From contig JBERSB010000259.1 of NCBI GenBank assembly GCA_041236755.1, positions 1 through 34,277 of the forward strand: a stretch of DNA of 34,277 nucleotides, written 5' to 3'. Below are positions 2,833 through 18,425 of the stretch, piece after piece (position 1 is the first letter of the stretch; each line of letters opens with the position of its first letter). The notes beneath the pieces are model-generated. The model was not told where the DNA came from and ran no database searches. It saw nothing but the letters and a program-made list of their open reading frames with translations. Origin of the DNA: Luminiphilus sp. Its GTDB lineage: Bacteria > Planctomycetota > UBA1135 > UBA2386. The translations under genes and the position numbers were made by a program.

Positions 2833-4782
2833 ATGCACCCCACGCGCATTCTCGTCGCCTGCCTCGGCCTCGTCGCGGCGGCTTCCGCCCAATCCATCAC
2901 GGGCAGCAACGGCGTCGATTTCTCCGCTCCGTTCAACACTTCGATCACGCTGGACCCGGCCAACAACCCCCACGTGCTGTCCGGTGACATCTACATCGAG
3001 CCGGGCGCGACCCTGACGATCCTCCCGGGCGTCCGCTTCGAGAGCAACCTCAACAGCACGCTGGCCATCACCCGCGGCGCCCAGATCTTCGCCGAGGGCA
3101 CCCAGGACGCCCCGATCGTGTTCACGTCCAACCAGGACACCGGTGTCTACCGCCAGGACGCCAACAACGAGTGGGGCAACCTGACGGTCATGGGCTCGGG
3201 TTACATCTCCGAGGACGAGACGGCCACCAACACGTCGACGCCTTCGGCGAGCAACTATGCGGACATGGAAGGCCTGACGCCTGCGGTCGTCGGCTTCAAC
3301 GACTACGGCGGCGGCGACGACAACGACGACAGCGGCACGATCGCGTTCTGCACCTTCTCCTACGGCGGCATCGCGTCGATCCCGGGCAAGGAGCTGAACG
3401 GCCTGTCGCTCGGCGGCATCGGCCGCGGCACCGACATCCACCACGTCGAGATCCTGAACAACATCGACGACGGCATCGAGGTCTGGGGCGGCACCGTCAA
3501 CCTCAGCTACGTGTCGATCTGGAACATCGGAGACGACAGCTTCGACATCGACCAGGGCTGGCGCGGCAAGGCCCAGTTCGGCCTGATCGTGCAGGGCGCC
3601 TCGAACCAGGGCGCGCAGGGCTCGGGCTTCGGCGACAACGCGATGGAGATCGACGGCGCCGAGCGCTGCGACTGGCAGCCGGTCACGACTGCGGCCATCC
3701 ACAACTTCACGGTCGTCGGCGGCGACCGCCCGGCCGGCGTCAACCCGACCGACGAGCTGGTCGAGTTCCGCGACAACGCGCGCGTCCAGTTCCTCAACTG
3801 CATCTTCATGGACGCAGGCAAGGAGGTCATCAACGACAAGGTCACCGACGGTGAGGCCAACAACAACACCACCGTCTGCGGCGCCGGCTCGGCCGTTCCG
3901 CAGCTGCTGACGCGCATGACCACGCCCGCCACGCAGACCTACGCGAACAACCCGTTCTCGAACCCGGCTGCGGCCTACCAGGCGCAGAACAGCGCCGGCA
4001 ACCTCGTCGAGTTCCGCGGCTGCCTCTACTACAACAACAACGCGAGTTCGGCCTACACCGAGGCGCTCGGCTACGGCGTGTTCTCCTCGTTCCCGGTCGC
4101 GGGCACCAACCACGCCAACAACGACATCCTCGTCAGCATGCCGATCACGGCGCGCCAGCGCTCGGCCACGACCTTCATCGGCTCGGGCAGCAGCAACCAC
4201 GGCGTCAACCCGGTCACGTTCCTGGACCCGACGCCGACCGGCGCGGCGCTCTCGGTCGCCGAGGTCAGCCCCGCCGACGGCTTCTTCCGCGGCGCGCCCT
4301 ACGCCGGCGGCTTCGCGCCGGGCAACAACTGGCTGATCGGCTGGAGCCGCACCAGCGTCTACGGCCTGACCACCCAGCGCACGGCCGGCACCAACGAGCC
4401 GATCCACGGCACCGAGAACGGCGGCGCGGCGGGCCACCCTGTGCTCTACACGGACGGTGACTGGAGCGTCGGCTCGCAGGTCACCCAGAACCTGACCAAC
4501 CTGCCGCTGGGCGTGGGCTTCATCCTGTTCGCGACGGCGCCCGCGAACCCGATCGTCCCGACGGCCGGCATCCCGCTCGGCCTGTTCGGCATCGACACCC
4601 TGATCCCGAGCAGCACCGGCGCGATCGTGGTCGTGTCGGGCGCCGGTCAGGGCAGCTACGGCTTCACGATGCCGGCGGGCAACTGGTCCGGGCTGAAGTT
4701 CTACACGCAGGGCTTCGCCTTCGACGCGAGCCTGCCGAACGGCGACTTCTCGGTCTCGAACGCGCAGCGCCACAACCTCTGA
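2833..4782 (+). CDS. secreted right-handed beta-helix protein with distinct C-terminal beta domain (649 aa)
   Basis: True start is ATG 2833 (MHPTRILVACLGLVAAASA-Q signal peptide) inside the 91..4782 ORF. Beta-helix-type motifs: IEPGATLTILPGV, AEGTQDAPIVFTS, WGNL, DDSGTI, ELNGLSLGGIGRGT, DDGIEVWGGTVN, GDDSFDIDQGWRG. Confidence 0.85.
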   Translation: MHPTRILVACLGLVAAASAQSITGSNGVDFSAPFNTSITLDPANNPHVLSGDIYIEPGATLTILPGVRFESNLNSTLAITRGAQIFAEGTQDAPIVFTSNQDTGVYRQDANNEWGNLTVMGSGYISEDETATNTSTPSASNYADMEGLTPAVVGFNDYGGGDDNDDSGTIAFCTFSYGGIASIPGKELNGLSLGGIGRGTDIHHVEILNNIDDGIEVWGGTVNLSYVSIWNIGDDSFDIDQGWRGKAQFGLIVQGASNQGAQGSGFGDNAMEIDGAERCDWQPVTTAAIHNFTVVGGDRPAGVNPTDELVEFRDNARVQFLNCIFMDAGKEVINDKVTDGEANNNTTVCGAGSAVPQLLTRMTTPATQTYANNPFSNPAAAYQAQNSAGNLVEFRGCLYYNNNASSAYTEALGYGVFSSFPVAGTNHANNDILVSMPITARQRSATTFIGSGSSNHGVNPVTFLDPTPTGAALSVAEVSPADGFFRGAPYAGGFAPGNNWLIGWSRTSVYGLTTQRTAGTNEPIHGTENGGAAGHPVLYTDGDWSVGSQVTQNLTNLPLGVGFILFATAPANPIVPTAGIPLGLFGIDTLIPSSTGAIVVVSGAGQGSYGFTMPAGNWSGLKFYTQGFAFDASLPNGDFSVSNAQRHNL

Positions 4783-4806
4783 GCGTCCGAGAGGTCGTGA
4801 CGACAC

Positions 4807-4842
4807 GCAGGCGGGGTGCGGCCAAGGTCGCGCTCCGCCTGC
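4807..4842 (+). terminator. strong hairpin downstream of beta-helix gene (terminator or mRNA stabiliser)
   Basis: GCAGGCGGGGTGCGGC-CAAG-GTCGCGCTCCGCCTGC pairs fully when G-U pairs are allowed; starts 25 nt after the stop; no U-tract. Confidence 0.55.
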
Positions 4843-4888
4843 TGCAATTCCGGGGACGCACCGGCGCGCTGATGCGCGTCGCCCATCG

Positions 4889-4974
4889 CTTGACGAGATC
4901 TTGACCGGACGTCGGCCCTTCTAGTCCGAATCACAACGGTCTCTTCACGGCATCTACACGTAGGTCCATAGCGT
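4889..4974 (+). promoter_or_regulatory. 11-bp-period direct repeats (OmpR/PhoB-type box) plus -10 element
   Basis: CTTGACGAGAT/CTTGACCGGAC (4889-4910), then CACAACGGTCT/CTTCACGGCAT/CTACACGTAGG (4932-4964), then TAGCGT (4969-4974). Motif-to -10 spacing is 13 nt, the same as at 2726-2758. Confidence 0.6.
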
Positions 4975-5080
4975 CGTCGTCGTGATCCCGGACGAGGCGC
5001 GAACGGCCGTGCCGAACCGGGCCCGCACAGCGCCGCCGACGCGGCGCGACTGCACGCGCCAACCACTGCTGACTGTCTTC

Positions 5081-6352
5081 ATGAAGACGCCCTTCGCCTC
5101 CTCTGTACTGCTGCTCTGCGTGCTGCCGCTGGTCTCCTGCGGCGACGACCACCAGCACGCCGTGACCTCCGCCCGCGCGGCCGGGCACGCCGAAGTCGTC
5201 GACGCGGCCGCGGACCCCTCGCAGAGAGCGCTGCTCGAGCTGGCGTTCGAGGCGGCGTCACGGTTCCCCACGTCGCCACACAAGAAGAACCGGGGCCGCG
5301 CCCAAGGGCTGGTGCTCGCCGGTTGCTTCGAGCTCGGTCTGCCGCTCCTGGCGCTGCGCTTCGCGCCGCAGGCCGAGGGCTGGCGACGCGGGGCCGCCTA
5401 CGCGGACTTCGTCTACCACGCTGCTCGCCAAGGCGTCACCGAAGGCTCGCGGCGCTACCTCGCGCTCGCATCGCAGGTCGTCGACGCTGAGTCCGCGGTC
5501 CCGAACGCGCAGCAATGGCGGCTCGACACGGTGCGCCTGAAGATCGCGCGGGCGCTCGCGGCCGTCGGCGACCTCGACGGCGCCCAGCAGACCGCGGGAG
5601 CGATCGACGCGTCTTCGCGCGGCGCCGTCGACCCGGACTGGTCGACGACGGTCGCGTCCCGCGTCGTGGACATGGACCTCGACGCGGCGCGCCGGGACCT
5701 CGCCCTGATCACGGACTCGTTCGAAGGTCAGTCGCTCGGCGAGCAGGGCTCCTCGCTGGCGGTCCTGAGCGCGATGCACGGACGGTTCTTCTCGGATCGC
5801 GAGCTGCGCGAACAGCTCGAGGAGCGCCTGCTGGTCCGCTACGTCAAGTTGCCGGCAGCCCTGCGCCTCGAGGCCATCGCGCCGCTCGTGGGTCACTACC
5901 TCGCCAACGACGAGGTGGACGGCGCGCGTGAGATCGTCGCGCAGCTGGCCGCGCTCGTCGAGCGCACGCGCTGGCGCCCGGAGGACAAGCTGCCGGCGCT
6001 GGCGCGCATGGCCGAGCTGCGCGCGGACCTCGGAGACGTCGACCTGGCGCGGCAGGAGCTGGAAGCAGCCCTGGTCTACTACCACGAGGTCCGAGGCGAG
6101 ATCTTCGACATCTACCGCTGCGACGCGCTGCGCCCGGTCGGCCTCGCGTTCGCGCACCTCGGGGACCGCGAGCGGGCCCTGGACCTGCTCGCGACGGCGC
6201 TCGAGGAGGGGGTCCAGAACCCCAACGCGCGGCCGCGCTGCGATGACCTCGTCGAGACCTGCGTCGCCATGGCTTCGCGACGTATCGAGCCGTCCGCAGA
6301 GATGTTCGACAGGATGCGCGCGGTCTGCGCCGACCTGAACGAGCCCTGGTAG
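5081..6352 (+). CDS. alpha-helical (TPR-like) lipoprotein of unknown function (423 aa)
   Basis: ATG 5081 gives MKTPFASSVLLLCVLPLVS-C (lipobox-like). Amphipathic helical repeats (GDLDGAQQ, GDVDLARQEL, GDRERALDLL). Ends 2 nt before the receptor gene. Confidence 0.7.
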   Translation: MKTPFASSVLLLCVLPLVSCGDDHQHAVTSARAAGHAEVVDAAADPSQRALLELAFEAASRFPTSPHKKNRGRAQGLVLAGCFELGLPLLALRFAPQAEGWRRGAAYADFVYHAARQGVTEGSRRYLALASQVVDAESAVPNAQQWRLDTVRLKIARALAAVGDLDGAQQTAGAIDASSRGAVDPDWSTTVASRVVDMDLDAARRDLALITDSFEGQSLGEQGSSLAVLSAMHGRFFSDRELREQLEERLLVRYVKLPAALRLEAIAPLVGHYLANDEVDGAREIVAQLAALVERTRWRPEDKLPALARMAELRADLGDVDLARQELEAALVYYHEVRGEIFDIYRCDALRPVGLAFAHLGDRERALDLLATALEEGVQNPNARPRCDDLVETCVAMASRRIEPSAEMFDRMRAVCADLNEPW

Positions 6353-6354
6353 CT

Positions 6355-9354
6355 GTGAACCCGAATCGCATCTTCCTCGTGTTGGGCGCCGCGCTGCTGG
6401 TCGCGGCAGCCGCGAACGCGCAGCAGGTCGGCACGATCCGGGGCACCGTCATCGACAAGGACTTCAACGAGCCGCTGGCGGGCGTGACGGTCCAGATCGT
6501 CGGAGTACAGCAGCGCGTCGTGACCGACGGCAACGGCGTCTTCCTCTTCCGGGGGTTGCCGCCCGAGAACTACACGGTCGTGCTCGCGAAGGACGGCTAC
6601 ACCCGCGCGGTGGTGCAAGTTCGCGTGGTCTCGGGGCAGCAGTCCGACGAGCGCGTAGAGATGCTCGGGGACTTCACGGAGCTGGAGGAGTTCGTCGTGC
6701 GCGAGCAGGTCCAGCAGTCGTTGACCACCGAGCAGAAGGTGCTCGAGAGCCGCTTCGACAACGCCGCCATGGTCGACGCCATCAGCTCCGAGCTGATGTC
6801 CAAGAGCGGCGCCGGAAGCGCCGACGAGGCGCTCCGCCTCGTCGCCGGCGCATCGACGCAGGACGGCAAGTCGGCGGTGATCCGAGGCCTGCCCGACCGC
6901 TACGTGGCGACTCTGGTCAACGGCGTGCTGTTCCCCAGCTCGGACGAGGACAAGCGCGCAGTCGAGCTCGACGTCTTCCCGGCGAGCGCCATCCAGACCG
7001 TCGAAGTCAGCAAGACGTTCACGCCTGACCAGCAGGGCAACGCGTCGGGCGGCGCGGTCAACGTGGTGCTGCGCAGCGTGCCGGAGCAGCCGTTCTTCGT
7101 GAACTACAGCCTCGGCACCAGCTACAACACGCAGACCACCGGCCGCCGGGACTTCTTGAGCTACGCCGACGGCGGCGTGGGGGCCTTCGGGAGGAGCGGC
7201 AGCGAGCGCAACATCCAGCAGGTCGGCGAGAGCTGGACCGGCGCGGTCGGCGCCGACACCGTCGAGGCGCCCGACAACGTGAAGTGGTCTGCGTCGACCG
7301 GCGGTCGCTACGAGCTGGACGACGACTGGCGGATCGGCGGCTTCTTGAACTTCTTCTACGACCGCAGCGCCAACTTCCGCGAGAACGCCCGCGACGAGTC
7401 GTGGAAGGTCGGCCAGGTCGGCAGCCTGATGACGCCGCAGACCCAGCTCGGGACGCTGCAGCAGCCGCCGTTCACCACGTCGCTGCTCGAGCTGGACCGC
7501 AGCCAGGAGACGGTGCAGTGGGGCGGCCTCTCGACGTTCGGTCTGGAGAGCGACAACCACGCGTTCAACGTGACGCACCTGTTCTCGCGCGTCGCCGAGG
7601 ACACGGTCACGTTCGCCGAGGACACGCAGGGCAAGAACTACTTCTTCCCGGGTCACGACCCGAACGACCCGACCTCCCCCGGCTTCAACCAGAACGACTC
7701 GGCGCCTTGGACCCGGCAGCAGACGCTCGCCTACGTCGAGCGCGGCACCGCGGCGCTGCAGCTCAACGGCCGACACCGCTGGGACCTTTGGGGCTTCGGC
7801 GCGCTGCGCGGCATCGAGATGGACTGGACGGTCGCCCAGAACGAGGCCTACCGAGACACGCCCGACCGGCGCGAGTTCGCGACGTTCTGGGATCCGGGCG
7901 CGGGCCCGAACGGCACGTTCTTCCAGCTCAAGCCGGCAGCGGAGTTCACCCTCGGCAACCTCCAGCGCACCTTCATCAAGATCGAGGAGGAGAGCGAGGA
8001 GCTGGCGCTCAACTTCCGACTGCCCGTCGACGTGTGGGGCGGACGTGAAGGTGCGTTCAAGTTCGGCTGGTTCCAGGACAGCGTCGAGCGGACGTTCACG
8101 CAGGAGACCTTCTCGAACTTCAACGATCCGAACCAGCAGTTCCAGGGCGCCTGGGAGGGCATCGGCTGGGCGCAGAACTGGGTCTACGAAGAGCACCCGA
8201 TCACGGCGGCGGAGACCGACGTGGACTACGTCGGTAGGCAGGACATCGAGGCGCAGTACTTGATGGTCGACCTGCCGCTCACAGACGAGCTCCGGATGGT
8301 GAGTGGAGTGCGCTGGGAGGCTACGGACATCTCGATCATCAGCGATCCCGAGTCCGAGGCGACGTGGGTTCCCTCGACCGACGCTGAGGGCAACCCCAAC
8401 TTCGGGATCGCGAACTTCCCCGTCAGCGACCCGACGGATCCGACCTACGACCCCGACCTGCTCGCTTCTGCCAATCCCCAGCGGTCCCAGGACAACGTGC
8501 TGCCTGCCATCGGCTTCATCTACGAGCCGATCGACGGGCTGATCCTCCGCGCCTCCTACACGGAGACCGTCGCGCGACAGACGTTCAAGGAACTGTCGCC
8601 GGTGTTCCAGCAGGAGTACATCGGCGGTCCGGTGTTCATCGGCGACCCGAACCTCGAGATCAGCGAGGTGCAGAACACGGACTTCCGCATCGATTACATG
8701 CCTGCGGAGGGCTCGCTGTTCTCGGTGTCCTACTTCAAGAAGGACATCGAGAAGCCGATCGAGTACGTCGAGGCGGCGCAGGGATTCACCTTCACCAAGC
8801 CGGTCAACTACCCGAGCGGCAAGCTGCGCGGCTGGGAGGTGGAACTCCGCCAGGAGATGAGCCAGTTCTGGCGGCCGCTCCAGGGCCTGCAGGTCGGCGG
8901 GAACTCGACGTGGATCGACGCGACCGTTCGGCGACCCGACAGCGAGCTGGAGCAGTTCCTGCAGTTCCAGGGCGTCGAGGACGACCCGACGCGCGACATG
9001 ACCGACGCGCCCGACTACCTCTGGAACCTGTTCACGACCTACGACGTCGCCGCGACGGGGACCAGCTTCGGCGCGTTCTACACGGTGACCGGCGACACGC
9101 TGATCCAGGGCCCCGGCCCTTCCAACAGCGCCTTCATCCCTGCGACCTACGACAAGGCCTACGACAACCTGACGCTGACCATGCGGCAGGACCTCGGCCG
9201 CGGCGTGACCCTGTCGCTGTCGGCGAAGAACCTGACCGACGCCAACCGGCAGCAGGTCTACCGGACCAAGTATCTCCCCGAGGACCGCATACGCCGCGAC
9301 TACACGACCGGCGTCACCTACTCGCTCTCGATCGGCGGCGTGATCCGCTTCTGA
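6355..9354 (+). CDS. TonB-dependent outer-membrane receptor with N-terminal CarboxypepD_reg-like domain
   Basis: Signal peptide; GTIRGTVIDKDFNEPLAGVTV; plug motifs IRGLPDRY and VEVSKTFTPDQQGNASGGAVNV; barrel strands LRASYTETVARQTFKEL and LSLSAKNLTD; C-terminal Phe. Confidence 0.93.
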   Translation: MNPNRIFLVLGAALLVAAAANAQQVGTIRGTVIDKDFNEPLAGVTVQIVGVQQRVVTDGNGVFLFRGLPPENYTVVLAKDGYTRAVVQVRVVSGQQSDERVEMLGDFTELEEFVVREQVQQSLTTEQKVLESRFDNAAMVDAISSELMSKSGAGSADEALRLVAGASTQDGKSAVIRGLPDRYVATLVNGVLFPSSDEDKRAVELDVFPASAIQTVEVSKTFTPDQQGNASGGAVNVVLRSVPEQPFFVNYSLGTSYNTQTTGRRDFLSYADGGVGAFGRSGSERNIQQVGESWTGAVGADTVEAPDNVKWSASTGGRYELDDDWRIGGFLNFFYDRSANFRENARDESWKVGQVGSLMTPQTQLGTLQQPPFTTSLLELDRSQETVQWGGLSTFGLESDNHAFNVTHLFSRVAEDTVTFAEDTQGKNYFFPGHDPNDPTSPGFNQNDSAPWTRQQTLAYVERGTAALQLNGRHRWDLWGFGALRGIEMDWTVAQNEAYRDTPDRREFATFWDPGAGPNGTFFQLKPAAEFTLGNLQRTFIKIEEESEELALNFRLPVDVWGGREGAFKFGWFQDSVERTFTQETFSNFNDPNQQFQGAWEGIGWAQNWVYEEHPITAAETDVDYVGRQDIEAQYLMVDLPLTDELRMVSGVRWEATDISIISDPESEATWVPSTDAEGNPNFGIANFPVSDPTDPTYDPDLLASANPQRSQDNVLPAIGFIYEPIDGLILRASYTETVARQTFKELSPVFQQEYIGGPVFIGDPNLEISEVQNTDFRIDYMPAEGSLFSVSYFKKDIEKPIEYVEAAQGFTFTKPVNYPSGKLRGWEVELRQEMSQFWRPLQGLQVGGNSTWIDATVRRPDSELEQFLQFQGVEDDPTRDMTDAPDYLWNLFTTYDVAATGTSFGAFYTVTGDTLIQGPGPSNSAFIPATYDKAYDNLTLTMRQDLGRGVTLSLSAKNLTDANRQQVYRTKYLPEDRIRRDYTTGVTYSLSIGGVIRF

Positions 9355-9414
9355 ACTGCACCCTTCTCCTGCCTCCCTGAAATGACCTCCGCCCCAACAG
9401 TAAGGAACTGTCCC

Positions 9415-10266
9415 ATGCCGTTTGACCGGCGCCGCTCCCGGCTCCTGGCGCGCCGCGCTGCGCCGCTCGTGCTCGCCCTCGCTGTCGTCGCGAGCGCGCC
9501 CGACGCTGCGGCTCAGTCGGGCGGTCAGCCGCCCCGGAGCGTCGAGGACCCGACCGCGATCGCCAAGACCGTGCGCGCAGCCCACGCGGAGTACGCGCTG
9601 GCGAAGCGGACGATCTCCGAAGAACGCGCGGCGTGGCAGAAAGGCAAGCAGACGCTGGAGGCGCAGGTGCAGGTGCTCGAGGGCGAGATCCAGTCCTTCG
9701 AGGCGCGCATCGCCGAAGCCAACAAGAGCATCGAGGCCGCAGACGGGAAGTACGGCGAGCTAGAGCGACAGAAGGCGCGCCTCGAGCGCGTCTCCAAGCT
9801 CCTCGACGAGCGGATCACCCGACTCGAAGAGCGCACCAGAGCGCTGCTCCGCCGGGTGCCGGAACCGCTCGCACTCAACGTCAAGCCGATCTCTCAGCGA
9901 CTGCCCGAGAGCGACGAAGAGCGCGCCAAGCTGTCTCTCAGCGAGCGCTACCAGAACGTGATCGGCGTGCTCAACCCGATCGACAAGTGGAACCGCGAGG
10001 TCCGGATCGAGAACGAGCGCCGCGACCTCCAGGGAGGCAGGAGCGTCTCGGTCACGGTGCTCTACATCGGCCTCGCGCAGGGCTACTACGTCGGCGGCAA
10101 GGGGCCGGACGGCAAGCCGAACCTCGCCGGCGTCGGGGTGCCGACCCCGGACGGCTGGCGCTGGACGCCCGCGGACTCGCTGGCGCCGGATGTCAGCAAG
10201 GCCGTCTCGATCTACCGCAACGAGCAGCTCGCACGCCTCGTGCGGCTGCCGGTCAGCATCCAGTGA
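9415..10266 (+). CDS. DUF3450 family coiled-coil periplasmic protein (TtpB-like)
   Basis: AAGGA RBS before ATG 9415 (alternative start 9382); signal peptide; long coiled coil; LSLSERYQNVI...VLYIGLAQGYY...GWRW motif; sits directly before the long ExbB. Confidence 0.8.
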   Translation: MPFDRRRSRLLARRAAPLVLALAVVASAPDAAAQSGGQPPRSVEDPTAIAKTVRAAHAEYALAKRTISEERAAWQKGKQTLEAQVQVLEGEIQSFEARIAEANKSIEAADGKYGELERQKARLERVSKLLDERITRLEERTRALLRRVPEPLALNVKPISQRLPESDEERAKLSLSERYQNVIGVLNPIDKWNREVRIENERRDLQGGRSVSVTVLYIGLAQGYYVGGKGPDGKPNLAGVGVPTPDGWRWTPADSLAPDVSKAVSIYRNEQLARLVRLPVSIQ

Positions 10267-10280
10267 GCGAGGCCTTGACG

Positions 10281-11756
10281 ATGCACACCAACCAGATGCT
10301 CTCTCATTTCCTGGCGGCGGCGACGTGCTTGGCCGCTGCGCTGACCGGCCAGGGCGAGGCGACGACGCCTTCTGCCCAGGAGCCTCGCGCCACGCTCGAA
10401 GCCGCGGCGGCATCGATGCAGGCAGACATGTCGGCTGCGCTCGCTGAGCTCGATGCGCTCCGCGCAGAGATCGGCGCCGAGCGGCTGCCGCTCGCGAAGA
10501 AGCTGACGCAGACCGAGGGACGCTTGAGCGCGGTCCGCCGGGACTTCGACGCCGTCTCCAGGGAGCTGGTCAAGAAGACCGACAGCCTCGCCGGACTCGA
10601 CGCTTCGCTCACCGCGCTGAACCGGCAGTCCGACTACCTCTCCAGCCTGCTCGGACAGTACGGAGAGGAGTTCCGGACGCGGCTGCACATCGCCGAGCTG
10701 CAGCGATACCGGCAGCCGCTCGAGGCCGCGAAGCTGGCGCTCGAGAACACCAAGCTGACCGACGTCGATCGGTTCGGGACCCAGCTGGGTGTCGTCGAGC
10801 TGTCGCTGGACAAGCTCGAGGACGAGCTGGGCGGCACCCGCTTCGACGGGCGCGCCAAGGTCGACAACGGCGAGCTCAAGGCGGGCCGCGTGGTGATGCT
10901 GGGTCCGATGGCGCTGTTCCAGGCGGCGGACGGCTCGGCGATCGGCTCGATCGAGGAGACCGGCGGCTCACAGGAGCCGACCGTGCTGGACTTCTCGGAA
11001 GAGGAGGACCGTCGAGCGGCGGCCGGCATCGCGCTCGGTAGCGGTGGCCAGTTTCCGATGGACGTCACCCTCGGCAACGCGCAGAAGGTCGAGGCGATCC
11101 AGGAGACGTGGTGGGAGCACGTGCAGAAGGGCGGCGTCATCATGATCCCCATGGCTGTTCTGGCCGGGGCCGCGCTGCTCGTGGTGCTGCTCAAGTGGCT
11201 CTCGATGGTGTTCGTGCGACGCCCCTCCAAGCGCCGCGTCGCCCAGCTGCTCACGGTTGTCCAGGAGGGGGACCACGCGACCGCGAAGCAGCTCGCGCAG
11301 TCGATGCGGGGTCCCGCTGGACGGATGCTCGCTGCGGGCGCCGAGCACCTCGGCGAGCCGCGTGAGCTGATCGAAGAGGTGATGTTCGAGAAGCTGCTGA
11401 CCACGCGCCTCAAGCTGCAGAGTTGGCTGCCGTTCGTCGCGATCTGCGCCACGTCGGCGCCCTTGCTCGGCCTGCTGGGCACCGTGACCGGGATCATGGG
11501 CACCTTCGCGCTGATGACGGAGTTCGGCACCGGCGACCCCAAGGTGCTCTCGTCGGGGATCTCCGAGGCCCTAATCACGACCGAGCACGGTCTGATCATC
11601 GCCATCCCGTCGCTGCTTCTGCACGCCTTCCTGGCGCGCAAGGCCAAGGGCGTCACCGACGGCATGGAGAAGATGGCCGTGCAGTTCATGAATCACATCC
11701 GCGAGCCGAAGCCGGCGGCCGCCCCCTCGGCCGCCGTCGCGTCCGAGGTCGCCTGA
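10281..11756 (+). CDS. long MotA/TolQ/ExbB protein with N-terminal periplasmic coiled coil (TtpC-like)
   Basis: ATG 10281; signal peptide, coiled coil, PMDVTLG, then ExbB core APLLGLLGTVTGIMGTF...SGISEALITTEHGLIIAIP. Confidence 0.9.
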   Translation: MHTNQMLSHFLAAATCLAAALTGQGEATTPSAQEPRATLEAAAASMQADMSAALAELDALRAEIGAERLPLAKKLTQTEGRLSAVRRDFDAVSRELVKKTDSLAGLDASLTALNRQSDYLSSLLGQYGEEFRTRLHIAELQRYRQPLEAAKLALENTKLTDVDRFGTQLGVVELSLDKLEDELGGTRFDGRAKVDNGELKAGRVVMLGPMALFQAADGSAIGSIEETGGSQEPTVLDFSEEEDRRAAAGIALGSGGQFPMDVTLGNAQKVEAIQETWWEHVQKGGVIMIPMAVLAGAALLVVLLKWLSMVFVRRPSKRRVAQLLTVVQEGDHATAKQLAQSMRGPAGRMLAAGAEHLGEPRELIEEVMFEKLLTTRLKLQSWLPFVAICATSAPLLGLLGTVTGIMGTFALMTEFGTGDPKVLSSGISEALITTEHGLIIAIPSLLLHAFLARKAKGVTDGMEKMAVQFMNHIREPKPAAAPSAAVASEVA

Positions 11757-11763
11757 TCCTCAG

Positions 11764-12432
11764 ATGTTCGCCTTCGTCGAAGTGGCCGCGTCGTGGTCCG
11801 AGCAGCTCGCGCTGCTCTGGGGCGCCGCGTGGGACATCTGGGAGAAGGGCGGTTGGGCGATGGGCGCGATCTTCTTGAACGCTGTCATCATGTTCGGCTT
11901 CGGTGTCCACACGCTGATGAGGATCGCGCGGAAGAGCTTCCGCGGTCGCGGCGAGAAGACCTGGCGGCTGTGGATCGAGCACCCGAAGTACCGCGAGGGC
12001 AAGGTCGGCGAGCTGCTCGACGAGGTCACCATCGCAGAGAGCCTGGAGCAGTCGGCGGCGGTCTTCGACGGACTCCGTCAGGCCGAGCTGGCGCCGATCA
12101 ACCGTGACCTCAGGGTCATGAAAGTCTGCATCGCAGCAGCGCCGCTCCTCGGCCTCCTCGGCACCGTCACCGGCATGCTCGCGACCTTCGCTGCGCTCGC
12201 GGCGGGCAAGGGCGGCGACAAGACGATGGTAGCCGTCAGCCAGGGCATCTCCGAGGCGCTGATCACGACGATGACAGGCCTCGTCGTCGCGCTGCCGGGG
12301 CTGTTCTTCCAATACGGCCTCTCGCGCATGCGCAACCAGTATGCGGCCTTCCTGGCGAAGCTCGAGACGGGCTGCGCGCAAGACCTCCACCGGCGCATGC
12401 AGGCGCGCGCCGGCGACTCCGAGGCCGCCTGA
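11764..12432 (+). CDS. exbB: MotA/TolQ/ExbB proton channel protein
   Basis: APLLGLLGTVTGMLATF...GISEALITTMTGLVVALP motifs. Confidence 0.9.
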   Translation: MFAFVEVAASWSEQLALLWGAAWDIWEKGGWAMGAIFLNAVIMFGFGVHTLMRIARKSFRGRGEKTWRLWIEHPKYREGKVGELLDEVTIAESLEQSAAVFDGLRQAELAPINRDLRVMKVCIAAAPLLGLLGTVTGMLATFAALAAGKGGDKTMVAVSQGISEALITTMTGLVVALPGLFFQYGLSRMRNQYAAFLAKLETGCAQDLHRRMQARAGDSEAA

Positions 12433-12470
12433 GGCACACCGCGAGACCACCTACCTGGAACAAGACCACC

Positions 12471-12884
12471 ATGCGACGCTTCCGAGACTTCAGCAACGAG
12501 GACGCGGCCGAGGGCGGCATCGACATGTCGCCCATGATCGACTGCGTCTTCATCCTGCTCATCTTCTTCATCGTCACGACGACTTTCGTCGAGGAGACGG
12601 GCGTCGATGTGGACAAGCCACAGGCCGCCGCCGGTGTCTCGCTGCAGAAGAACAGCGTGATGTTCGCGCTGACTGCGGAGGGTGAGGTCTACTTCGACTC
12701 GAAGCCGGTCGGGATCGCCGCGGTGCGCTCCATCGTCGCCCGCAAGATGCTCAAGGAGAAACAGCCGGTCATCGTGCAGGCCGACCAGGCTGCGTCCGCG
12801 GGCATGCTCACGCGCGTCATCGACCAGTGCAAGCTGGGCAACGCCCCGACCGTCAGCATCGCGACCCGAAAGGCGGGGAGCTAG
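12471..12884 (+). CDS. exbD: biopolymer transporter ExbD
   Basis: IDMSPMIDCVFILLIFFIVTTTF transmembrane segment with conserved Asp; VIVQAD periplasmic motif. Confidence 0.93.
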   Translation: MRRFRDFSNEDAAEGGIDMSPMIDCVFILLIFFIVTTTFVEETGVDVDKPQAAAGVSLQKNSVMFALTAEGEVYFDSKPVGIAAVRSIVARKMLKEKQPVIVQADQAASAGMLTRVIDQCKLGNAPTVSIATRKAGS

Positions 12885-12886
12885 AG

Positions 12887-13552
12887 ATGTCGTCCGAGGA
12901 GCCTTCGAGGCGGTCGAGCCGCACGTGGCGCGCGCTGTTCGCAGCCGTCGGCGGGCTCGCCTGTGCGCTCGGTTGTTTCTTACTGCTGCCGCTCCTGCGC
13001 GCGATCACCGCGCCGCCCAGGGCCGATCTGGAGCTTCGTCGTGCTGAGACTGTGGAGCTGCCGCCGCCGCCGCCGCCGGAGGAAGAAAAGGACGAGCCCG
13101 AGCAGGAAGAGGAGCCGCCTCCGCCCGAAGCGAGCGCCGAGGCCCCGCCCCTGGACCTGTCCGACCTGGAGCTGGTGCTGAACGGCGGCGGCTTCAACGA
13201 CGGCGCAGGCGCGTTCGCGGGCGGGCTGCCGCTGCAGCTGCCGGGCGGCGTCGCGGGCGGAAGCATGGCCGACCTCTTCGACATGGGTGACCTCGAGGAG
13301 AAGCCGAGGCCGATCTATCGCGCGCGCCCCGACACCACTCGCGAGATGCGCAAGCGCATGCCGTGCACCGTCCTGATCCAGATGACGGTCGACAAGCTGG
13401 GGCGGGTCGTCAATCCGACCGTGGTCAGCACAGACGATCCGTTGTTCAACGCCGCGGCGCTCAGCGCCATCCGCCAGTGGAAGTTCGAAGCCGGCAAGCG
13501 GCGCGGCAAGCCCGACGACTTCCGCGTCCGTCAGCCCATTACGTTCAAGTGA
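12887..13552 (+). CDS. tonB: energy transducer TonB
   Basis: ATG 12887; N-terminal TM helix; Pro/Glu-rich linker (PPPPPPEEEKDEPEQEEEPPPP); TonB_C motifs VDKLGRV...AALSAIRQWKFEAG...VRQPITF. Confidence 0.9.
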   Translation: MSSEEPSRRSSRTWRALFAAVGGLACALGCFLLLPLLRAITAPPRADLELRRAETVELPPPPPPEEEKDEPEQEEEPPPPEASAEAPPLDLSDLELVLNGGGFNDGAGAFAGGLPLQLPGGVAGGSMADLFDMGDLEEKPRPIYRARPDTTREMRKRMPCTVLIQMTVDKLGRVVNPTVVSTDDPLFNAAALSAIRQWKFEAGKRRGKPDDFRVRQPITFK

Positions 13553-13562
13553 GGTGTAAGTG

Positions 13563-15101
13563 ATGTCTTCCCGAATCCCGACCTTCGCGGCCGCCGCGTC
13601 GCTGCTGCTGGCAGCCTGCGCGACGCACACGACGGGCCTGCCGTCGCCGCCTGTTGCGGCGCTGAAGGCTGACGTCACTCCTGAAGCCGAGGCGGCTACC
13701 GAGGCGCCGGCCGTCGAGGCGGCCGCGCTGGAGGTGGCTGCACAGGAACCCGCACAGGAGCCTGCGCCGGCCCAGGAGAGCGGCTCGCAGGCGACGCTCC
13801 GCGAGATCTGGGCCAAGCCGTCGTTCCAGCGTCGCCTCGCGCAGAACTGGCTGCGCGGCGGCGAGGTCGACCCGCCGCTGACACTCCGGGAGGGCGAGTT
13901 CCGCCAAGAGGTGCTGCAGCTGATCAGTGACGACGACATCGAGGACGCCACAGCCCGTCTGCAGAGCCTCCAGGGGCCCGACGCCAGTCCCGTGTGGGAC
14001 TTCATGCTCGGCAACCTCAACTTCGGCAGGGAGCAGTATGCCGACGCCGCGCGCGAGCTGACGAAGGCCGTCGGTAAGTATCCCAGCTACCGCCGTGCCT
14101 GGCAGATGCTGGGCTTTGCGCAGATGCGCGCGGGCGAGTTCACGTCGGCTGTCGAGTCGTTCGTCGAGGTGATCGGGCTCGGCGGCGGCGACGCGCAGAC
14201 CTACGGCTTCCTCGGCGTGGCGCACGCGCAGGCCGGGGAGTTCACGGCGGCGGAGTCGGCGTTCCGCCTCGTGATGATGATGGACCCGCGCGACGACCGC
14301 TGGAAGAAGCTGCTCGCCGAGTCGCTCGGGCGGCAGGGCAAGTACGCGGAGTGCATCAGCCTGATCAACTCGCTGATCGCCAAGGACCGCGACAATGTCG
14401 AGCTGTGGAAGATGCAGGCCAACGCGTTCGCCAACATGGGCGACACCGAGAGCGCCGCGACCAGCTTCGAGATCATCGACCGTCTGGGCGGCGCCGACTA
14501 TGTAACGCTCGCCAACCTCGGCACGATCTACTTCAACGACGGCCTGTTCTCGATGGCTGTCGACGCCTACCTGCGCGCGCTCCAGCGCCCGGACCGGGGC
14601 AGTCACGAGGCCGCGCTGGCCGTCGCCAACAGCCTCGCGACGCGTTCCGCCTACGAAGAAGCGGGCCGCCTCGTCGCCGGCGTCGAGGAGGCCTACGCCG
14701 CGACGCTGTCGGCGGAGAGCAAGATGGAGCTTCTCAAGCTCCGCGCGCGGCTCGCGGTGGCGTCCGGCGCCACCGAGGAGCAGGTCGCGCTGCTGCACAA
14801 GATCGTCGAGTCGAATCCGCTCGACGGCGACGCGCTGATCCAGCTGGCGCGGCACTACCAGGGCGCAGGCGACGTCGAGCAGGCCGAGTTCCGCTACGAA
14901 CAGGCGGCACGCAACCCCGACTTCACGGCGCGCGCCAAGGTGCTACACGGCCAACTGCTCGCAAACCAGCAGCGCTTCGCCGAGGCCGAGCCGCTGCTCG
15001 AGGCAGCGCTGCAGCTCAAGCGCAGCGACGACGTGAGCCAGCTGCTCGAATACGTCAAGCGCGCCAAGGCGCGCGCGGCGTCGAAGAAGTCGGGCGCCTA
15101 G
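13563..15101 (+). CDS. TPR-repeat lipoprotein (TtpD-like position)
   Basis: MSSRIPTFAAAASLLLAA-C lipobox; Ala/Glu/Pro linker; many TPR units (FMLGNLNF, AWQMLGFAQ, YGFLGVAH, LANLGTIYFN). Confidence 0.88.
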   Translation: MSSRIPTFAAAASLLLAACATHTTGLPSPPVAALKADVTPEAEAATEAPAVEAAALEVAAQEPAQEPAPAQESGSQATLREIWAKPSFQRRLAQNWLRGGEVDPPLTLREGEFRQEVLQLISDDDIEDATARLQSLQGPDASPVWDFMLGNLNFGREQYADAARELTKAVGKYPSYRRAWQMLGFAQMRAGEFTSAVESFVEVIGLGGGDAQTYGFLGVAHAQAGEFTAAESAFRLVMMMDPRDDRWKKLLAESLGRQGKYAECISLINSLIAKDRDNVELWKMQANAFANMGDTESAATSFEIIDRLGGADYVTLANLGTIYFNDGLFSMAVDAYLRALQRPDRGSHEAALAVANSLATRSAYEEAGRLVAGVEEAYAATLSAESKMELLKLRARLAVASGATEEQVALLHKIVESNPLDGDALIQLARHYQGAGDVEQAEFRYEQAARNPDFTARAKVLHGQLLANQQRFAEAEPLLEAALQLKRSDDVSQLLEYVKRAKARAASKKSGA

Positions 15102-15109: not shown

Positions 15110-16285
15110 CTACGCCTTGCGCAGCGGCCGCACGATCAGGTCCTTCAGCGCGAAGTTGCTGCCCTCGCCGACGCGGGTGACGAACAGGTCGTTGTGGTGG
15201 CGGATCAGGCCGAACTCGTCGAAGCACGACACGCCGCCGCAGATCTCCATGCCGAGCGCCACCAGTTCGCTCGCGCGGCGGCTGCACTCGACCTTGATCT
15301 TGGCGGCCTGCTCGCGGCCGAGCGTGCCCTTCTCGTAGAGGTCGCAGCAGTGCACAAGCCACGTCAGCCCGCTCTCGAGCGCGATGTCCATGTCGACGAT
15401 GACGTCCTGCACGCGCTGGAAGCGGCCGATCGGCTGGTCGTCGAACTGGTGCCGCTCCTCGGCGTAGATCCGGCACTTGTCGAGCGCGAACGCGAGCGAG
15501 CCGAGCGCCAAGGACGCGATGAACAGGCGGCCACCGTTGAGCGTGGTGACCATCACCTTGAAGCCGTTGTTGACCTCTCCCAGGATCGCGTCGTCGCCGA
15601 CCTCGACGTTCTCGAACATGATCGAGCCGGTCGATGACTGCTCCCAGACCTTCTTGCCCTGCATCTCCTGGTAGAAGACGCCCTGCTGGTCCATCGGCAC
15701 GATGAAGCACGTCGAGCGCTTGCCGTTGGGGGCGTCGGGCGCGGTCAGCGCGTGCACGACGACGTGGCTCGCCCACTTCGCGTTGGTCGACCAGCACTTC
15801 TCGCCGTTGATCACCCACTTGTCGCCCTGCTTGGCGGCGGTCACCTCCGGGTTGGCGGCGTCGCTGCCGCGGCCGGGCTCCGAGAGGCCGAACACGAACA
15901 TGCGCTCGCCCGCGGCCAGCGCCGGCAGGTGCGCCTGCTTCTGCGCGTCGGAGCCGCACAGCTGCAGCGGCTTGGCGCCGAGCGAGATCGCGGCGCCCGG
16001 CGTGATCGCGACGGCCTGGCTGTGGTAGCCGATCGCGAGCCCCATCAGGCAGAGGTCTGCGTGGTCGCCGCCCTGGCCGCCGAACTCCTCGGCGATCGGG
16101 ATGCCGAACAGGCCCATCTCGCCCATGGCCCGGATGCAATCGTCGGGCACCAGCTGGTGCTCCCGCTCCCACTTCAGCAGGTGCGGCGCGATCTGCTCGT
16201 CGCTGAAGTCGCGGACCGCCTCGTAGAAGGCGAACTTGTCCTCGTCGATCAGGCCGGCGAGATAGGTGTCGATACGGCGTGCCAT
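15110..16285 (-). CDS. acyl-CoA dehydrogenase (391 aa)
   Basis: Start ATG 16285 (MARRIDTY); FGLSEPGRGSDA, INGEKCWSTN, RHQFDDQPIGRFQ, GEGSN (catalytic Glu at the MCAD-type position). Confidence 0.93.
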   Translation of the reverse strand: MARRIDTYLAGLIDEDKFAFYEAVRDFSDEQIAPHLLKWEREHQLVPDDCIRAMGEMGLFGIPIAEEFGGQGGDHADLCLMGLAIGYHSQAVAITPGAAISLGAKPLQLCGSDAQKQAHLPALAAGERMFVFGLSEPGRGSDAANPEVTAAKQGDKWVINGEKCWSTNAKWASHVVVHALTAPDAPNGKRSTCFIVPMDQQGVFYQEMQGKKVWEQSSTGSIMFENVEVGDDAILGEVNNGFKVMVTTLNGGRLFIASLALGSLAFALDKCRIYAEERHQFDDQPIGRFQRVQDVIVDMDIALESGLTWLVHCCDLYEKGTLGREQAAKIKVECSRRASELVALGMEICGGVSCFDEFGLIRHHNDLFVTRVGEGSNFALKDLIVRPLRKA

Positions 16286-16340
16286 CGCCCGAGACAGTAG
16301 GACGCGGCCGGGGCCGAGACCAGCGCGGGCCCGGCCCTGC

Positions 16341-18374
16341 TCAGCGGCCGCCTGCGGACTCGTCCGTAGCCGCCTTCTCGGCGGCTTCGAGCGCCTGCAG
16401 GAACGCCGTCGCGGTCGCGTTGCCGCGGTCGAGCTCCAGCACGCGGCGGAAGGCGGCCATCGCCGGCCCCGGCCGCGCCGAGAAGCGCATGTTGTAGCCG
16501 AGCAGCAGCTTGGCCCAGGCGTCGTAGGGCTTGTCCGAGCAGTAGCGCTGCAGCGCTTCGACCTGCGCGTCGAACTCGCTCGCGTCCTCGTAGAAGCCGC
16601 GCTTGTCGGTCTCGGCCGTGACGATCGCGGGCTCGAGCCGGACGGCCTCGGTGACGAGGAAGGCGGCGTAGTGGTAGTCGCCGTTGGCGAACACGGCGTC
16701 GGCCAGCACGAGGTGCACCGAGGCGTCCTCGGGGAGCAGGTTGCGGGCCTTGGCGTAGGCTTCGGCCGCGTCGTCGTAGCGGCCCGCGCGGAAGTAGAAG
16801 TCGCCGAGCTCGACGTACTTGTCGGCGAGCGCCTCGGTCTCGGGCGCCGGCCCTGCCGGCGCAGCACCGGCCGCGACGAGCACCTCGGTGCTGCCGCCGT
16901 CGACCGGCTCGAGCGGCGACTCCTCGACGACGACCACGCTGCTCGGCACGTAGAGGTAGGTCGGGCAGTAGGTCGTGGTCGGGTACCACCAGTAGCTGGC
17001 CGGCAGCGCGTTCGGGACCGACCAGCCGGTCCAGTAGGCCGATTGGTAGCACGTGTTCCAGTAGGACGTGTGCCACGCGTAGTAGGGCGCGAGCACGCCG
17101 ACGTTCCAGCACCACGGGTTGAAGCCGTTCCAGCCCCAGCCGCACAGGCTCCATCGCGACGCCCAGCCGTAGCCGAACGGCGTGTAGCACCCCGCACCCC
17201 AGCCGCCGAAGCTGTTGCAGCACCAGTTGTTGTTCCAGCCCCAGGTGTTGCCCCAGACGCCGCCGAAGGTCGTCCTCCGCGTCCCGGTCGACCAGCCGTA
17301 GCCGACGAACGAACCCGCGCGGGGCGACGTCGTCGCGTAGCCGGCCGGCGCGCCCAGCCGCGGCGCGCCCACGCTCGGCGTGGCGTAGGTGTTGGTCGTC
17401 GCGATCGCGCTCGAGCTGACGCGCCGCGCCTCGAGGCGTCCGGCGTCGGCTGCAGGCGAAGGCCGCCGCGTCGCGCGGGGCGCCTCGCGGCCGGCGTCGC
17501 GGGGGAGGTAGCGCTCGCGGATCGGCGCCGTCGACGCGCGTGTGCCGCGCGTCGGGCGTGCGGTGTCGGGCGTCGTGCCGTAGCGGCGCGTCGTGCGGTT
17601 GGTGTTGCTGTTGTTCGGGCGCAGGCCGCTCGTCGCGCCCGCCCCCGAGCGCCCGTCCGTCGTGGGGGTCTTCGTGGTCCGGGTGGTCGCGCGCACGTCG
17701 GACGCGCGGCTGCTGCCCGGCGCGTAGCGCGACCTCGAGCTGCTGCTCGACGGCGTCCTCGTGGACCGCGTGGTGCTGCTGGTGTCCGCCGCGCGGCCCG
17801 TGGTGCGCGGGGCGTAGCGGGACGACGAGCCGCGCGTCGACGGCGTGCGCGTCGGGCGGGTGATGGTGCGCGCGTCGCTGGAGCTGCTGGTTCGCGGCGT
17901 GTAGCGCGAGCTGCTGCTGCTGCGCGGCGGGGACGTGCGGCTCGGAGACGTGCGCGCGGACGAACTCGTGTCCGCCGAGCTGCTGCTGCCCGGGGCGTAG
18001 CGGCTGGGCGTCCGCGTCGTGCGGACGCGGCTCGCAGAGCTGCGTGTCGTCGGCCGGGTCGTCACGCGCGACGGCGAAGGCGTCGTGGTGGGGGTCGTCG
18101 CGCGGCTGGGCGCGGGTCGCGAGACGCGGCTCGGCGCGCGCGTCGTGGACGAGCGCGTCGTGCTCGGGGTGCGGGTGGGCGCGGGCCGCGTCACCCGCGG
18201 TGTCGGGCGGCTGGGAGCCGGGCGCGAGACCCGAGGTGCGGGGCGGCTCGGGGCGGGGCGCGTGACCGAGGGCCGCGGGCTGGGCCGGGACGGCGTGCTG
18301 CGTCGCTGTGCGGTCAGCGACGCGCCGATCATCAGGCCGAGCAGCGCGATCAGGAGGGGTCGTAGGTTCGTCAT
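16341..18374 (-). CDS. secreted protein: Arg/Ser/Thr/Pro-rich disordered region, Trp/Tyr/Gly/Asn-rich segment, C-terminal TPRs
   Basis: GAGGA RBS; signal peptide ending SLTA-Q; over 300 aa of low complexity; aromatic block; TPRs (LGDFYFRAGRYDDAAEAYAKA, LADAVFANGDYHYAA). Confidence 0.85.
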   Translation of the reverse strand: MTNLRPLLIALLGLMIGASLTAQRRSTPSRPSPRPSVTRPAPSRPAPRVSRPAPSRPTPRVTRPAPTRTPSTTRSSTTRAPSRVSRPAPSRATTPTTTPSPSRVTTRPTTRSSASRVRTTRTPSRYAPGSSSSADTSSSARTSPSRTSPPRSSSSSRYTPRTSSSSDARTITRPTRTPSTRGSSSRYAPRTTGRAADTSSTTRSTRTPSSSSSRSRYAPGSSRASDVRATTRTTKTPTTDGRSGAGATSGLRPNNSNTNRTTRRYGTTPDTARPTRGTRASTAPIRERYLPRDAGREAPRATRRPSPAADAGRLEARRVSSSAIATTNTYATPSVGAPRLGAPAGYATTSPRAGSFVGYGWSTGTRRTTFGGVWGNTWGWNNNWCCNSFGGWGAGCYTPFGYGWASRWSLCGWGWNGFNPWCWNVGVLAPYYAWHTSYWNTCYQSAYWTGWSVPNALPASYWWYPTTTYCPTYLYVPSSVVVVEESPLEPVDGGSTEVLVAAGAAPAGPAPETEALADKYVELGDFYFRAGRYDDAAEAYAKARNLLPEDASVHLVLADAVFANGDYHYAAFLVTEAVRLEPAIVTAETDKRGFYEDASEFDAQVEALQRYCSDKPYDAWAKLLLGYNMRFSARPGPAMAAFRRVLELDRGNATATAFLQALEAAEKAATDESAGGR
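17718..18003 (-). repeat. intragenic repeats encoding SRY(A/T)P four times
   Basis: SRYAPGSSSSAD, SRYTPRTSSSSD, SRYAPRTTGRAAD and SRYAPGSSRASD at about 30-aa spacing; further (S/T)RPAP(S/T)R repeats nearer the N-terminus. Confidence 0.7.
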
Positions 18375-18409
18375 GGGTTCCTCGTGGAGAGGTCGTCAGG
18401 CGCCAGCGA

Positions 18410-18425
18410 TGCAACAAGGATACCG
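18410..18425 (-). promoter_or_regulatory. candidate sigma54 (-24/-12) promoter
   Basis: Minus strand CGGTATCCTTGTTGCA = GG-N10-GC with TTGCA at -12, about 35 nt upstream of ATG 18374. Confidence 0.5.

Follow-up and report, generated by a model that had tools for sequence, protein, structure and literature searches.

Among the described relatives of the beta-helix protein reported here is ElpS of Caulobacter, a surface-anchored lipoprotein that is produced only in phosphate starvation, reaches the surface without the type II secretion system (T2SS) and is later released by a T2SS-dependent protease; its gene (CC0170) lies beside that of a TonB-dependent transporter (TBDT), CC0171, and a like layout with T2SS genes is present in Hyphomonas neptunium (PMC2996285). 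Flavobacterium johnsoniae encodes the TBDT Fjoh_0545 and a 'FII' lipoprotein of pectin-lyase fold, Fjoh_0546, in the PhoBR operon with OprP; both rise 8-10 log2-fold upon phosphate depletion, and PusCD pairs are also phosphate-induced (PMC8115612). BT4056, Fjoh_0546 and ElpS have been proposed as TBDT 'lids', with the pair in proximity in 621 genera (bioRxiv 10.1101/2023.03.17.533168). In Vibrio, a six-gene TonB motor operon begins with ttpB and ends with ttpD, and is essential for siderophore uptake in V. vulnificus; the TonB3 operon starts with a receptor gene (PMC6957404), and TonB3 is described as inactive in iron transport and without known function (PMC6957404; PMC10734418). We describe a nine-gene locus (positions 2833-15101) in a stretch of 34,277 nucleotides (nt) of contig JBERSB010000259.1, assembly GCA_041236755.1 (the window), that combines both kinds of system, and we judge with moderate confidence that it encodes a Pho-type-regulated, TonB-powered uptake system of the ElpS/TBDT kind with its own TonB2/TonB3-type motor.

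The genes are all on the + strand (lengths in amino acids, aa; TPR, tetratricopeptide repeat):

2833-4782, + strand: secreted right-handed beta-helix protein, 649 aa, PF28492 (Beta_helix_4); signal peptide and structure model
5081-6352, + strand: all-alpha TPR-like lipoprotein, 423 aa, lipobox LVSC; structure model and homologs
6355-9354, + strand: TonB-dependent transporter, 999 aa; Pfam CarboxypepD_reg 2e-16, Plug 5.5e-11, barrel 2e-32
9382-10266, + strand: TtpB-like DUF3450 coiled-coil protein with signal peptide; PF11932 3.5e-23, 82.6 bits (cut-off 32.6)
10281-11756, + strand: TtpC-like long MotA/TolQ/ExbB protein, 491 aa; MotA_ExbB at residues 345-463, N-terminal extension of ~290 aa
11764-12432, + strand: ExbB; Pfam 3.4e-21
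12471-12884, + strand: ExbD; Pfam 4.6e-27
12887-13552, + strand: TonB; transmembrane helix, Pro/Glu-rich spacer, TonB_C 2.8e-13
13560-15101, + strand: TtpD-like TPR lipoprotein, 513 aa, lipobox LLAAC; many TPR matches, e.g. TPR_19 9.7e-20

Seven of the nine genes, the TBDT and the six motor parts, were assigned by Pfam together with NCBIfam. The spaces from the lipoprotein gene through to ttpD are 2, 27, 14, 7, 38, 2 and 7 nt, and 298 nt separate the beta-helix gene from the lipoprotein gene. An initial annotation, made from the letters alone, had described nine co-oriented genes with short gaps from the lipoprotein gene onward, and this observation is confirmed, with gene boundaries at or near those first assigned and gaps of 2-38 nt. 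It had also named a TBDT and likened the gene order behind it to the Vibrio clusters, which agrees with the Pfam matches and the published description (PMC6957404): DUF3450 stands first, the long ExbB is followed by ExbB, ExbD and TonB, and the TPR protein stands last. By published description, the motor resembles both TonB2 and TonB3 in its six protein types and in how their genes are ordered, and TonB3 is likewise receptor-headed. Unlike TonB2, which is Fur-regulated and serves siderophore uptake, the window locus has promoters with Pho-type boxes; unlike TonB3, which is not iron-regulated, it has beta-helix and lipoprotein genes ahead of the receptor gene, along with those boxes. A TonB-box-like ELEEFVV lies between the N-terminal CarboxypepD_reg domain and the plug of the TBDT. 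Across the genome there are three Plug-bearing genes, two with TonB_C, one with DUF3450 and one for the beta-helix protein, and a tblastn search of the genome for paralogs of the motor proteins gave only a MotA/TolQ-like match, on contig C49.

The beta-helix protein received no family in the Pfam/NCBIfam scan, for which the Pfam copy was one without PF28492, and its more than 1,500 relatives every one carry PF28492; one of them, P0099, is encoded by the isolate 'Planctomycetes bacterium Poly30'. Its model (pLDDT 88.9) is a right-handed parallel beta-helix with a C-terminal beta-sandwich (~residues 520-649), and comparison by VIA-align with 7chu_A gave Z 21.4 and a root-mean-square deviation of 3.0 over 257 aligned residues, with tailspikes, alginate epimerase/lyase, NosD and pectate lyases next (Z 16-21). 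Foldseek against the PDB returned weak generic matches (best E 8.6e-5, TM ~0.2), and the family sequence profile had 0 matches among PDB chains. As a modelled fold, assignment to the beta-helix (pectin-lyase) superfamily is certain; by itself the fold gives the protein no function.

How the protein is anchored sets the planctomycete members apart. Their signal peptide is plain, without a conserved Cys, and they have no lipobox. In an alignment of 20 sequences from four phyla, lipoboxes are present in those proteobacterial homologs whose N-terminus is complete, and both of the scanned Bacteroidota homologs (L020, L028) end in sorting tails of the type IX secretion system (T9SS), so the anchoring mode differs inside one homologous family. 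Invariant in the 20 sequences are R81, W114, E146, E187, D212, D213, E216, D234, D235, D238, Q254, E272, N291, N322, W500 and W504, of which the acidic residues D212, D213, E216, D234, D235, D238 and E272 lie outside the predicted lipoprotein interface described below; the acidic residues are candidates for a ligand or metal site. The family also varies in architecture: longer forms of ~1,000-1,100 aa occur in Phycisphaerae, Sedimentisphaera and Omnitrophica-labelled records (P0021-P0032), one planctomycete metagenome-assembled genome (MAG) encodes tandem beta-helix paralogs with neighbouring locus tags ahead of the lipoprotein gene (P0019/P0023), and tandem or internally duplicated beta-helix domains are present in Bacteroidota, Caulobacterales and gammaproteobacterial loci (L020, L026, L040).

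Set beside ElpS, Fjoh_0546 and BT4056, the window protein has the beta-helix fold and the neighbouring TBDT in common with them and has no lipobox. The likeness to ElpS/CC0171 comprises a pectin-lyase-fold protein beside a TBDT and a tie to phosphate starvation, and the Hyphomonas locus L021, whose order is beta-helix homolog, TBDT and the T2SS genes GspD/E/F, has the elpS layout; its homolog carries PF28492 and has 37% identity to window residues 26-252. Unlike ElpS, a lipoprotein that undergoes T2SS-dependent cleavage, the window protein has an extra C-terminal domain and a separate TPR lipoprotein in place of its own lipobox, and unlike the elpS locus, the window has a full Ttp motor and no T2SS genes nearby. 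Fjoh_0545/0546 and BT4055/BT4056 share with it the combination of a CarboxypepD_reg-type TBDT and a pectin-lyase-fold outer-membrane protein, but theirs are Bacteroidota lipoproteins (T9SS-sorted in L020 and L028) beside which no motor genes are reported; the TPR lipoprotein and the motor are the planctomycete additions. ElpS-type TBDT systems are known and widespread, and the planctomycete version adds a lipoprotein partner and its own motor. Judging from sequences and models, what appears specific to the planctomycetes is a non-lipidated beta-helix protein that has lost its own anchor, together with a new TPR lipoprotein partner.

The lipoprotein encoded between the beta-helix gene and the TBDT gene has 61 relatives, and all the named ones belong to Planctomycetota. 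Its model (pLDDT 92.2) is an all-alpha TPR solenoid for which Foldseek returned generic TPR proteins such as LGN; SusD appears neither in its Pfam hits nor among its Foldseek matches. A complex of beta-helix residues 30-649 with lipoprotein residues 45-423 was predicted with our own alignments supplied, giving ipSAE values of 0.86, 0.85 and 0.79, whereas the best of three controls reached 0.00; the runs had at least 61% of contacts in common and a partner pLDDT of at least 83. Of 157 solved complexes, 116 reach the ipSAE mark applied, as do 2 of 215 mismatched pairs; this benchmark is a rough guide here because our own alignments were used. The predicted interface involves, on the lipoprotein side, the invariant or near-invariant H67, K69, W146, N380-P385 and P422-W423 (H67, K69, W146 and N380 being invariant in the family), and on the beta-helix side a single face of the N-terminal rungs together with portions of the additional C-terminal domain. 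The TPR lipoprotein is thus predicted to bind the beta-helix protein (median ipSAE 0.85 against 0.00 for the best control). Since the beta-helix protein has no lipid anchor of its own and the lipoprotein is strictly co-inherited with it, the lipoprotein could supply the anchor. The adjacency of a CarboxypepD_reg TBDT gene and a gene for a helical TPR-like lipoprotein recalls SusC/SusD and PusC/PusD; unlike SusC/SusD, the window lipoprotein has no SusD match, is encoded ahead of the TBDT and has the beta-helix protein as its predicted partner. Membership of SusC/SusD was considered and rejected: TIGR04056 matched the TBDT at 24.6 bits (cut-off 368.25) over the N-terminal domain only, and no SusD Pfam match was found.

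A contig search with the beta-helix protein gave 27 loci, 19 of planctomycete type and 8 from other phyla. The lipoprotein gene is directly 3' of the beta-helix gene in 16 of the 17 loci that continue past it (the exception is L008), the TBDT gene follows the lipoprotein gene in 13 of these 16 (L005, L012 and L015 end within ~0.85 kb), and the motor block adjoins in 8 of the 10 loci with enough flank, either downstream (L003, L004, L006, L007, L013, L019) or upstream in permuted order (L010, L011). Of 201 evenly sampled Planctomycetota genomes, 33 have the beta-helix gene, 26 of them at ≥44% identity, and 54 have DUF3450. In 29 of these 33 carriers one contig bears a DUF3450 gene within 7 kb of the beta-helix gene; in the other four (G045, G051, G131, G189), whose assemblies are fragmented, the two genes fall on separate contigs. 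The lipoprotein is present in 26 of the 201 genomes, exactly those with a close beta-helix homolog, and is always the next gene. Missing synteny with the TBDT/Ttp block had been named beforehand as the result that would speak against the system; given the strong synteny in the Planctomycetota sample (29 of 33 with DUF3450, 26 of 26 with the lipoprotein), that objection therefore clearly falls away.

Two planctomycete loci (G010:C53:7204-9186 and G184:C492:7714-9590) have a distant homolog (33-37% identity over residues ~30-345) that lies 0.4-0.6 kb from DUF3450 with no lipoprotein, which suggests a second, simpler module architecture inside Planctomycetota. One MAG has beta-helix pieces on three contig fragments (L008, L009 and L023); in L023 the beta-helix gene is followed by lipoprotein and TBDT genes, L008 has 3.9 kb of downstream sequence without a lipoprotein gene, and a second copy or mixed strains could account for this.

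Beyond the Planctomycetota, the beta-helix homolog is beside a TBDT in 6 of the 8 loci, and five TBDTs of these foreign loci match the window TBDT only and not the two other TBDTs of the genome. Phosphate-related genes lie near some of these homologs: in Allosphingosinicella (L025) the order is PhoU, PhoB-like regulator, PDZ protein, beta-helix homolog and TBDT, and in a Bacteroidota locus (L028) it is TBDT, homolog with T9SS sorting tail, and PstS- and PstC/A-like genes. The latter, a MAG, also encodes an unusual fusion (L028:13732-15975), a 747-aa PstC-like permease with WD40/beta-propeller matches (~residues 232-408) before BPD_transp_1. Among 300 Gammaproteobacteria scored, the beta-helix family is present in 23 and DUF3450 in 69, a tally that counts G246 and G348 (flagged unpublished), two genomes with no part in any other result; 11 of the 23 carriers have the two genes within 10 kb. 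The gene orders are homolog-homolog-TBDT-DUF3450-TtpC-ExbB-ExbD in L040, TBDT-homolog-DUF3450-TtpC-ExbB-ExbD in L041, and DUF3450-TtpC-ExbB-ExbD followed further on by TBDT-homolog in L042 and L043, with a TonB match in L042 only; the TPR lipoprotein is in none of these four loci. The earlier view that a receptor, a beta-helix protein and a Ttp motor together are peculiar to a planctomycete was not upheld, the combination recurring in the 11 gammaproteobacterial carriers and Vibrio TonB3 being receptor-headed.

The tie to phosphate within the window comes from its promoters, where the following elements were located:

2717-2758, + strand: Pho-type box 1, 11-nt-phased repeats GTCAC 2717-2721, TTCAC 2728-2732 and TGAAC 2739-2743, with -10-like TAGCTT 2753-2758
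4807-4842, + strand: 16-bp GC-rich hairpin 3' of the beta-helix stop codon, terminator- or attenuator-like, no U tract
4930-4974, + strand: Pho-type box 2, repeats ATCAC 4930-4934, TTCAC 4944-4948 and TACAC 4955-4959, with -10-like TAGCGT 4969-4974

Box 1 is ~75 nt upstream of the beta-helix ATG, in a block conserved in L002-L006, and box 2 is ~105 nt upstream of the lipoprotein ATG. The matching promoters that the initial annotation had pointed to were found: the 13-mer CTTCACGGCATCT is exact at both (2727-2739 and 4943-4955), within 11-nt-phased repeat blocks conserved in orthologous loci. Aligned with their orthologs, both promoters read as xxTCAy / CTTCAC / CT(G/A)(A/C)AC repeats in 11-nt phase, a ~9-nt spacer and TAGCTT or TAGCGT; searched as an exact regular expression, the window motif had no match in the orthologous loci, the conservation being visible only upon alignment. 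The layout is that of OmpR/PhoB-family activator sites that take the place of the -35 element, and it appears to resemble Pho boxes. The hairpin (-43.6 kcal/mol, z -5.76, equalled by 0 of 200 shuffles; stem conserved in L003-L005) after the beta-helix gene fits two transcription units with one box apiece. A sigma-70 consensus scan of the window returned 0 promoters, and terminator-like sites were at chance level (6 observed, 4.5 expected).

A 35-nt matrix, for which 10 sites (L002-L007) were taken exclusively from other genomes, was used to score 8,257,482 positions of this genome, and ranked the beta-helix promoter first (39.9), the lipoprotein promoter second (28.1) and a site at C505:3358(-) third (25.1), the next being at 18.2; with an earlier 11-site matrix, box 1 was again the best hit and one foreign site was ranked top after the two window sites. 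A Porin_O_P gene (4.3e-22), divergent from a pst cluster, begins 81 nt downstream of the C505 site, the region (L029, 1977-9592) comprising:

C505 1977-3311, - strand: Porin_O_P
C505 3955-4818: pstS (1.5e-36)
C505 4876-6063: phoU, PhoU-domain protein with a weak LMWPc match
C505, next in order: pstC/pstA-like permeases
C505 8750-9592: pstB

On the pstS side of the intergenic region, CTTCACGG occurs twice together with CTTCAT in 11-nt phase, and both divergent promoters bear direct-repeat boxes of the window type. The Porin_O_P promoters of G002 and G003 have the same paired repeats, and in the complete genome of the same genus (G160), a loose pattern had 6 hits; both orthologous promoters are among them, and another hit lies 186 nt upstream of the best PstS match. 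The box of the locus is, as would be expected of a Pho regulon, common to pstS and phosphate-porin promoters, and on the sequence evidence the locus supplies a candidate Pho box for Planctomycetota. The fourth matrix hit (C138:4308-4342, 18.2), 20 nt before the gene of a small secreted protein at a contig end, may be a further regulon member or chance.

The window has a base composition of ~70% G+C and, outside the locus, contains housekeeping genes. Both immediate flanks are unrelated to the locus:

1-2580, - strand: topA, upstream
15110-16306, - strand: acyl-CoA dehydrogenase, downstream

Further along are genes for a 974-aa DUF6797 protein and, after it, a multi-cytochrome-c protein of 683 aa (19258-24240), HAD and amidohydrolase genes and a heme-biosynthesis group, in which ferrochelatase (29317-30366) is accompanied by two open reading frames (ORFs), one amine-oxidase/HemY-like (31199-33715) and one HemN-like radical SAM (32530-34020), which overlap as listed and whose limits are uncertain. 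Very long antisense or out-of-frame ORFs of up to 2,606 aa run across real genes (e.g. 16249-24069, - strand) because of the 70% G+C and are not indicative of genes. The assembly is 4.15 Mb in 651 contigs and 88.7% complete, and the nearest homologs and loci carry Planctomycetota names, in agreement with the probable planctomycete origin first proposed.

We read the observed gene content, synteny and common promoter boxes, with the predicted folds and beta-helix/lipoprotein complex, as a single uptake system, and from them we infer which regulator acts, the topology at the surface, the substrate and every step after import, as follows. A PhoB-like winged-helix regulator would bind the 11-nt-phased direct repeats in the -35 place at two promoters, the first of which would transcribe the beta-helix gene only, ending at the strong hairpin, and the second an eight-gene operon of lipoprotein, TBDT, ttpB, ttpC, exbB, exbD, tonB plus ttpD. 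The beta-helix protein would be exported via its plain signal peptide and held by the co-inherited TPR lipoprotein as its lipid anchor, and this pair would form a substrate-capturing cap with the TBDT. The invariant acidic groove of the beta-helix would bind the substrate, probably via divalent cations; the substrate is probably a phosphorus compound, most likely a phosphorus-containing anion or polymer. The TBDT would import it, powered by the co-expressed motor, and phosphate would then be released and taken up via PstSCAB. A dedicated uptake machine in which the beta-helix protein works with the TBDT had been proposed in the initial annotation; this interpretation is partly supported, in its gene content, Ttp-type order and dedicated-uptake idea and by the synteny, and had missed both the phosphate-starvation link and the characterised relatives of the beta-helix protein, the pairing being already in print as a 'lid' pair (bioRxiv 10.1101/2023.03.17.533168).

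Several observations weigh against this reading. Genes for a phosphatase, a nuclease or an inner-membrane transporter are absent from the locus, the beta-helix is a typical fold of polysaccharide lyases and hydrolases, and two loci (L014, L017) have the beta-helix/lipoprotein/TBDT triad with no motor genes in the available flanks. The complex of beta-helix protein and lipoprotein could be periplasmic; to reach the surface, the non-lipidated protein would have to cross a planctomycete outer membrane. Among the response regulators of the genome, none reaches the PhoB-model cut-off of 296.2 bits (best match 192.5), the weak porin-like gene of G160 (L032) is without a box, and the two-repeat pattern is unenriched over its reversed control, with 6 vs 5 hits in G160 and 4 vs 1 in this genome, where the pattern was written post hoc; for these hits the locations alone are informative, not the counts. 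Candidate regulators of the OmpR/PhoB family are encoded at C283:4520-5215 and C421:2456-3136. The link to ElpS is based on PF28492 in the window and Hyphomonas proteins, on the L021 synteny and on the statements of the papers, CC0170 being compared by description. ElpS itself is reported to be no phosphatase, its deletion gave no phosphatase phenotype, and the Caulobacter receptor gene is reported as constitutively expressed (PMC2996285).

The alternative that survives best, which we nevertheless consider unlikely, is glycan uptake, in which the beta-helix protein would act at the surface on an anionic glycan, as a polysaccharide lyase or hydrolase, and the oligomers would be imported by a carbohydrate TBDT of the Xanthomonas/Caulobacter type. 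The best structural matches (tailspike depolymerases, alginate epimerase/lyase and pectate lyases, Z 17-21) are of this kind, the invariant acidic residues are reminiscent of Ca-dependent lyases, and the top NCBIfam model of the TBDT is TIGR01782 (TonB-Xanth-Caul), at 194.6 bits under its cut-off of 310. However, the window has no carbohydrate-active enzyme, sugar transporter or sugar-catabolism gene beside the locus, there are 0 sequence matches to solved lyases, the promoter box is common to pstS and phosphate-porin promoters, and relatives in Pho operons respond to phosphate and not to carbon (PMC2996285, PMC8115612).

It is improbable that the motor-powered TBDT moves the non-lipidated beta-helix protein outward for export or display, as Oar does for PopC in Myxococcus. 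The TBDT bears an N-terminal CarboxypepD_reg domain, and CarboxypepD_reg with plug and barrel would be an Oar-like architecture. The absence of a lipid anchor on the beta-helix protein, the absence of an encoded secretion system nearby and the T2SS-independent arrival of ElpS at the surface (PMC2996285) would be in keeping with such a role. Against it, Bacteroidota homologs (L020, L028) that have their own T9SS route are still encoded beside a TBDT, and the aligned proteobacterial homologs are lipoproteins; the pairing therefore persists over three export or anchoring modes, which fits a shared surface function better than export, and the Oar-like alternative raised in the initial annotation is not supported.

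We give about the same small chance to a regulator unrelated to phosphate, with the porin and pst coincidence reflecting general envelope or nutrient stress. Few sites per genome and no PhoB ortholog at the curated cut-off would suit this, but the box recurs at pstS or Porin_O_P promoters in four genomes, in agreement with the phosphate regulation found by experiment for homologs from two further phyla. Iron or siderophore uptake, as by Vibrio TonB2, is very improbable in spite of the same six-gene motor being essential for siderophore uptake in V. vulnificus (PMC6957404), as no siderophore, heme or Fur-related genes are within the locus, the promoters have direct repeats common to pst genes and are not Fur-box-like, iron depletion does not induce ElpS (PMC2996285), the P-responsive loci of F. 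johnsoniae are tightly repressed in N and Fe limitation (PMC8115612), and the receptor-headed TonB3 is inactive in iron transport (PMC6957404; PMC10734418).

In the literature searched, no publication brought together Planctomycetes, TonB-dependent transport and limitation by phosphate for a locus of this kind, and none linked DUF3450 with planctomycetes in this sense. As a probable Pho-type-regulated uptake system of the ElpS/TBDT kind, the locus physically joins two questions that are open in print, namely what ElpS-type proteins and their TBDTs import and what purpose a receptor-linked TonB3-type motor serves, and it points to one particular new partner protein, for which an interface is predicted. 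We tentatively suggest that the module may be the receptor-headed TonB3 cluster of vibrios and Teredinibacter, a phosphorus-scavenging system whose motor would be made only in phosphate starvation, with the cap in planctomycetes split in two, a soluble ElpS-like beta-helix protein on a lipoprotein of a new TPR family. If so, this identity with TonB3 would give a function to ElpS, TtpB/TtpD and TonB3 together. Should the reading of the locus be confirmed, bacteria of at least two phyla would assemble a complete, separately powered outer-membrane importer only upon phosphorus exhaustion, which would bear on phosphorus cycling by marine and freshwater planctomycetes.

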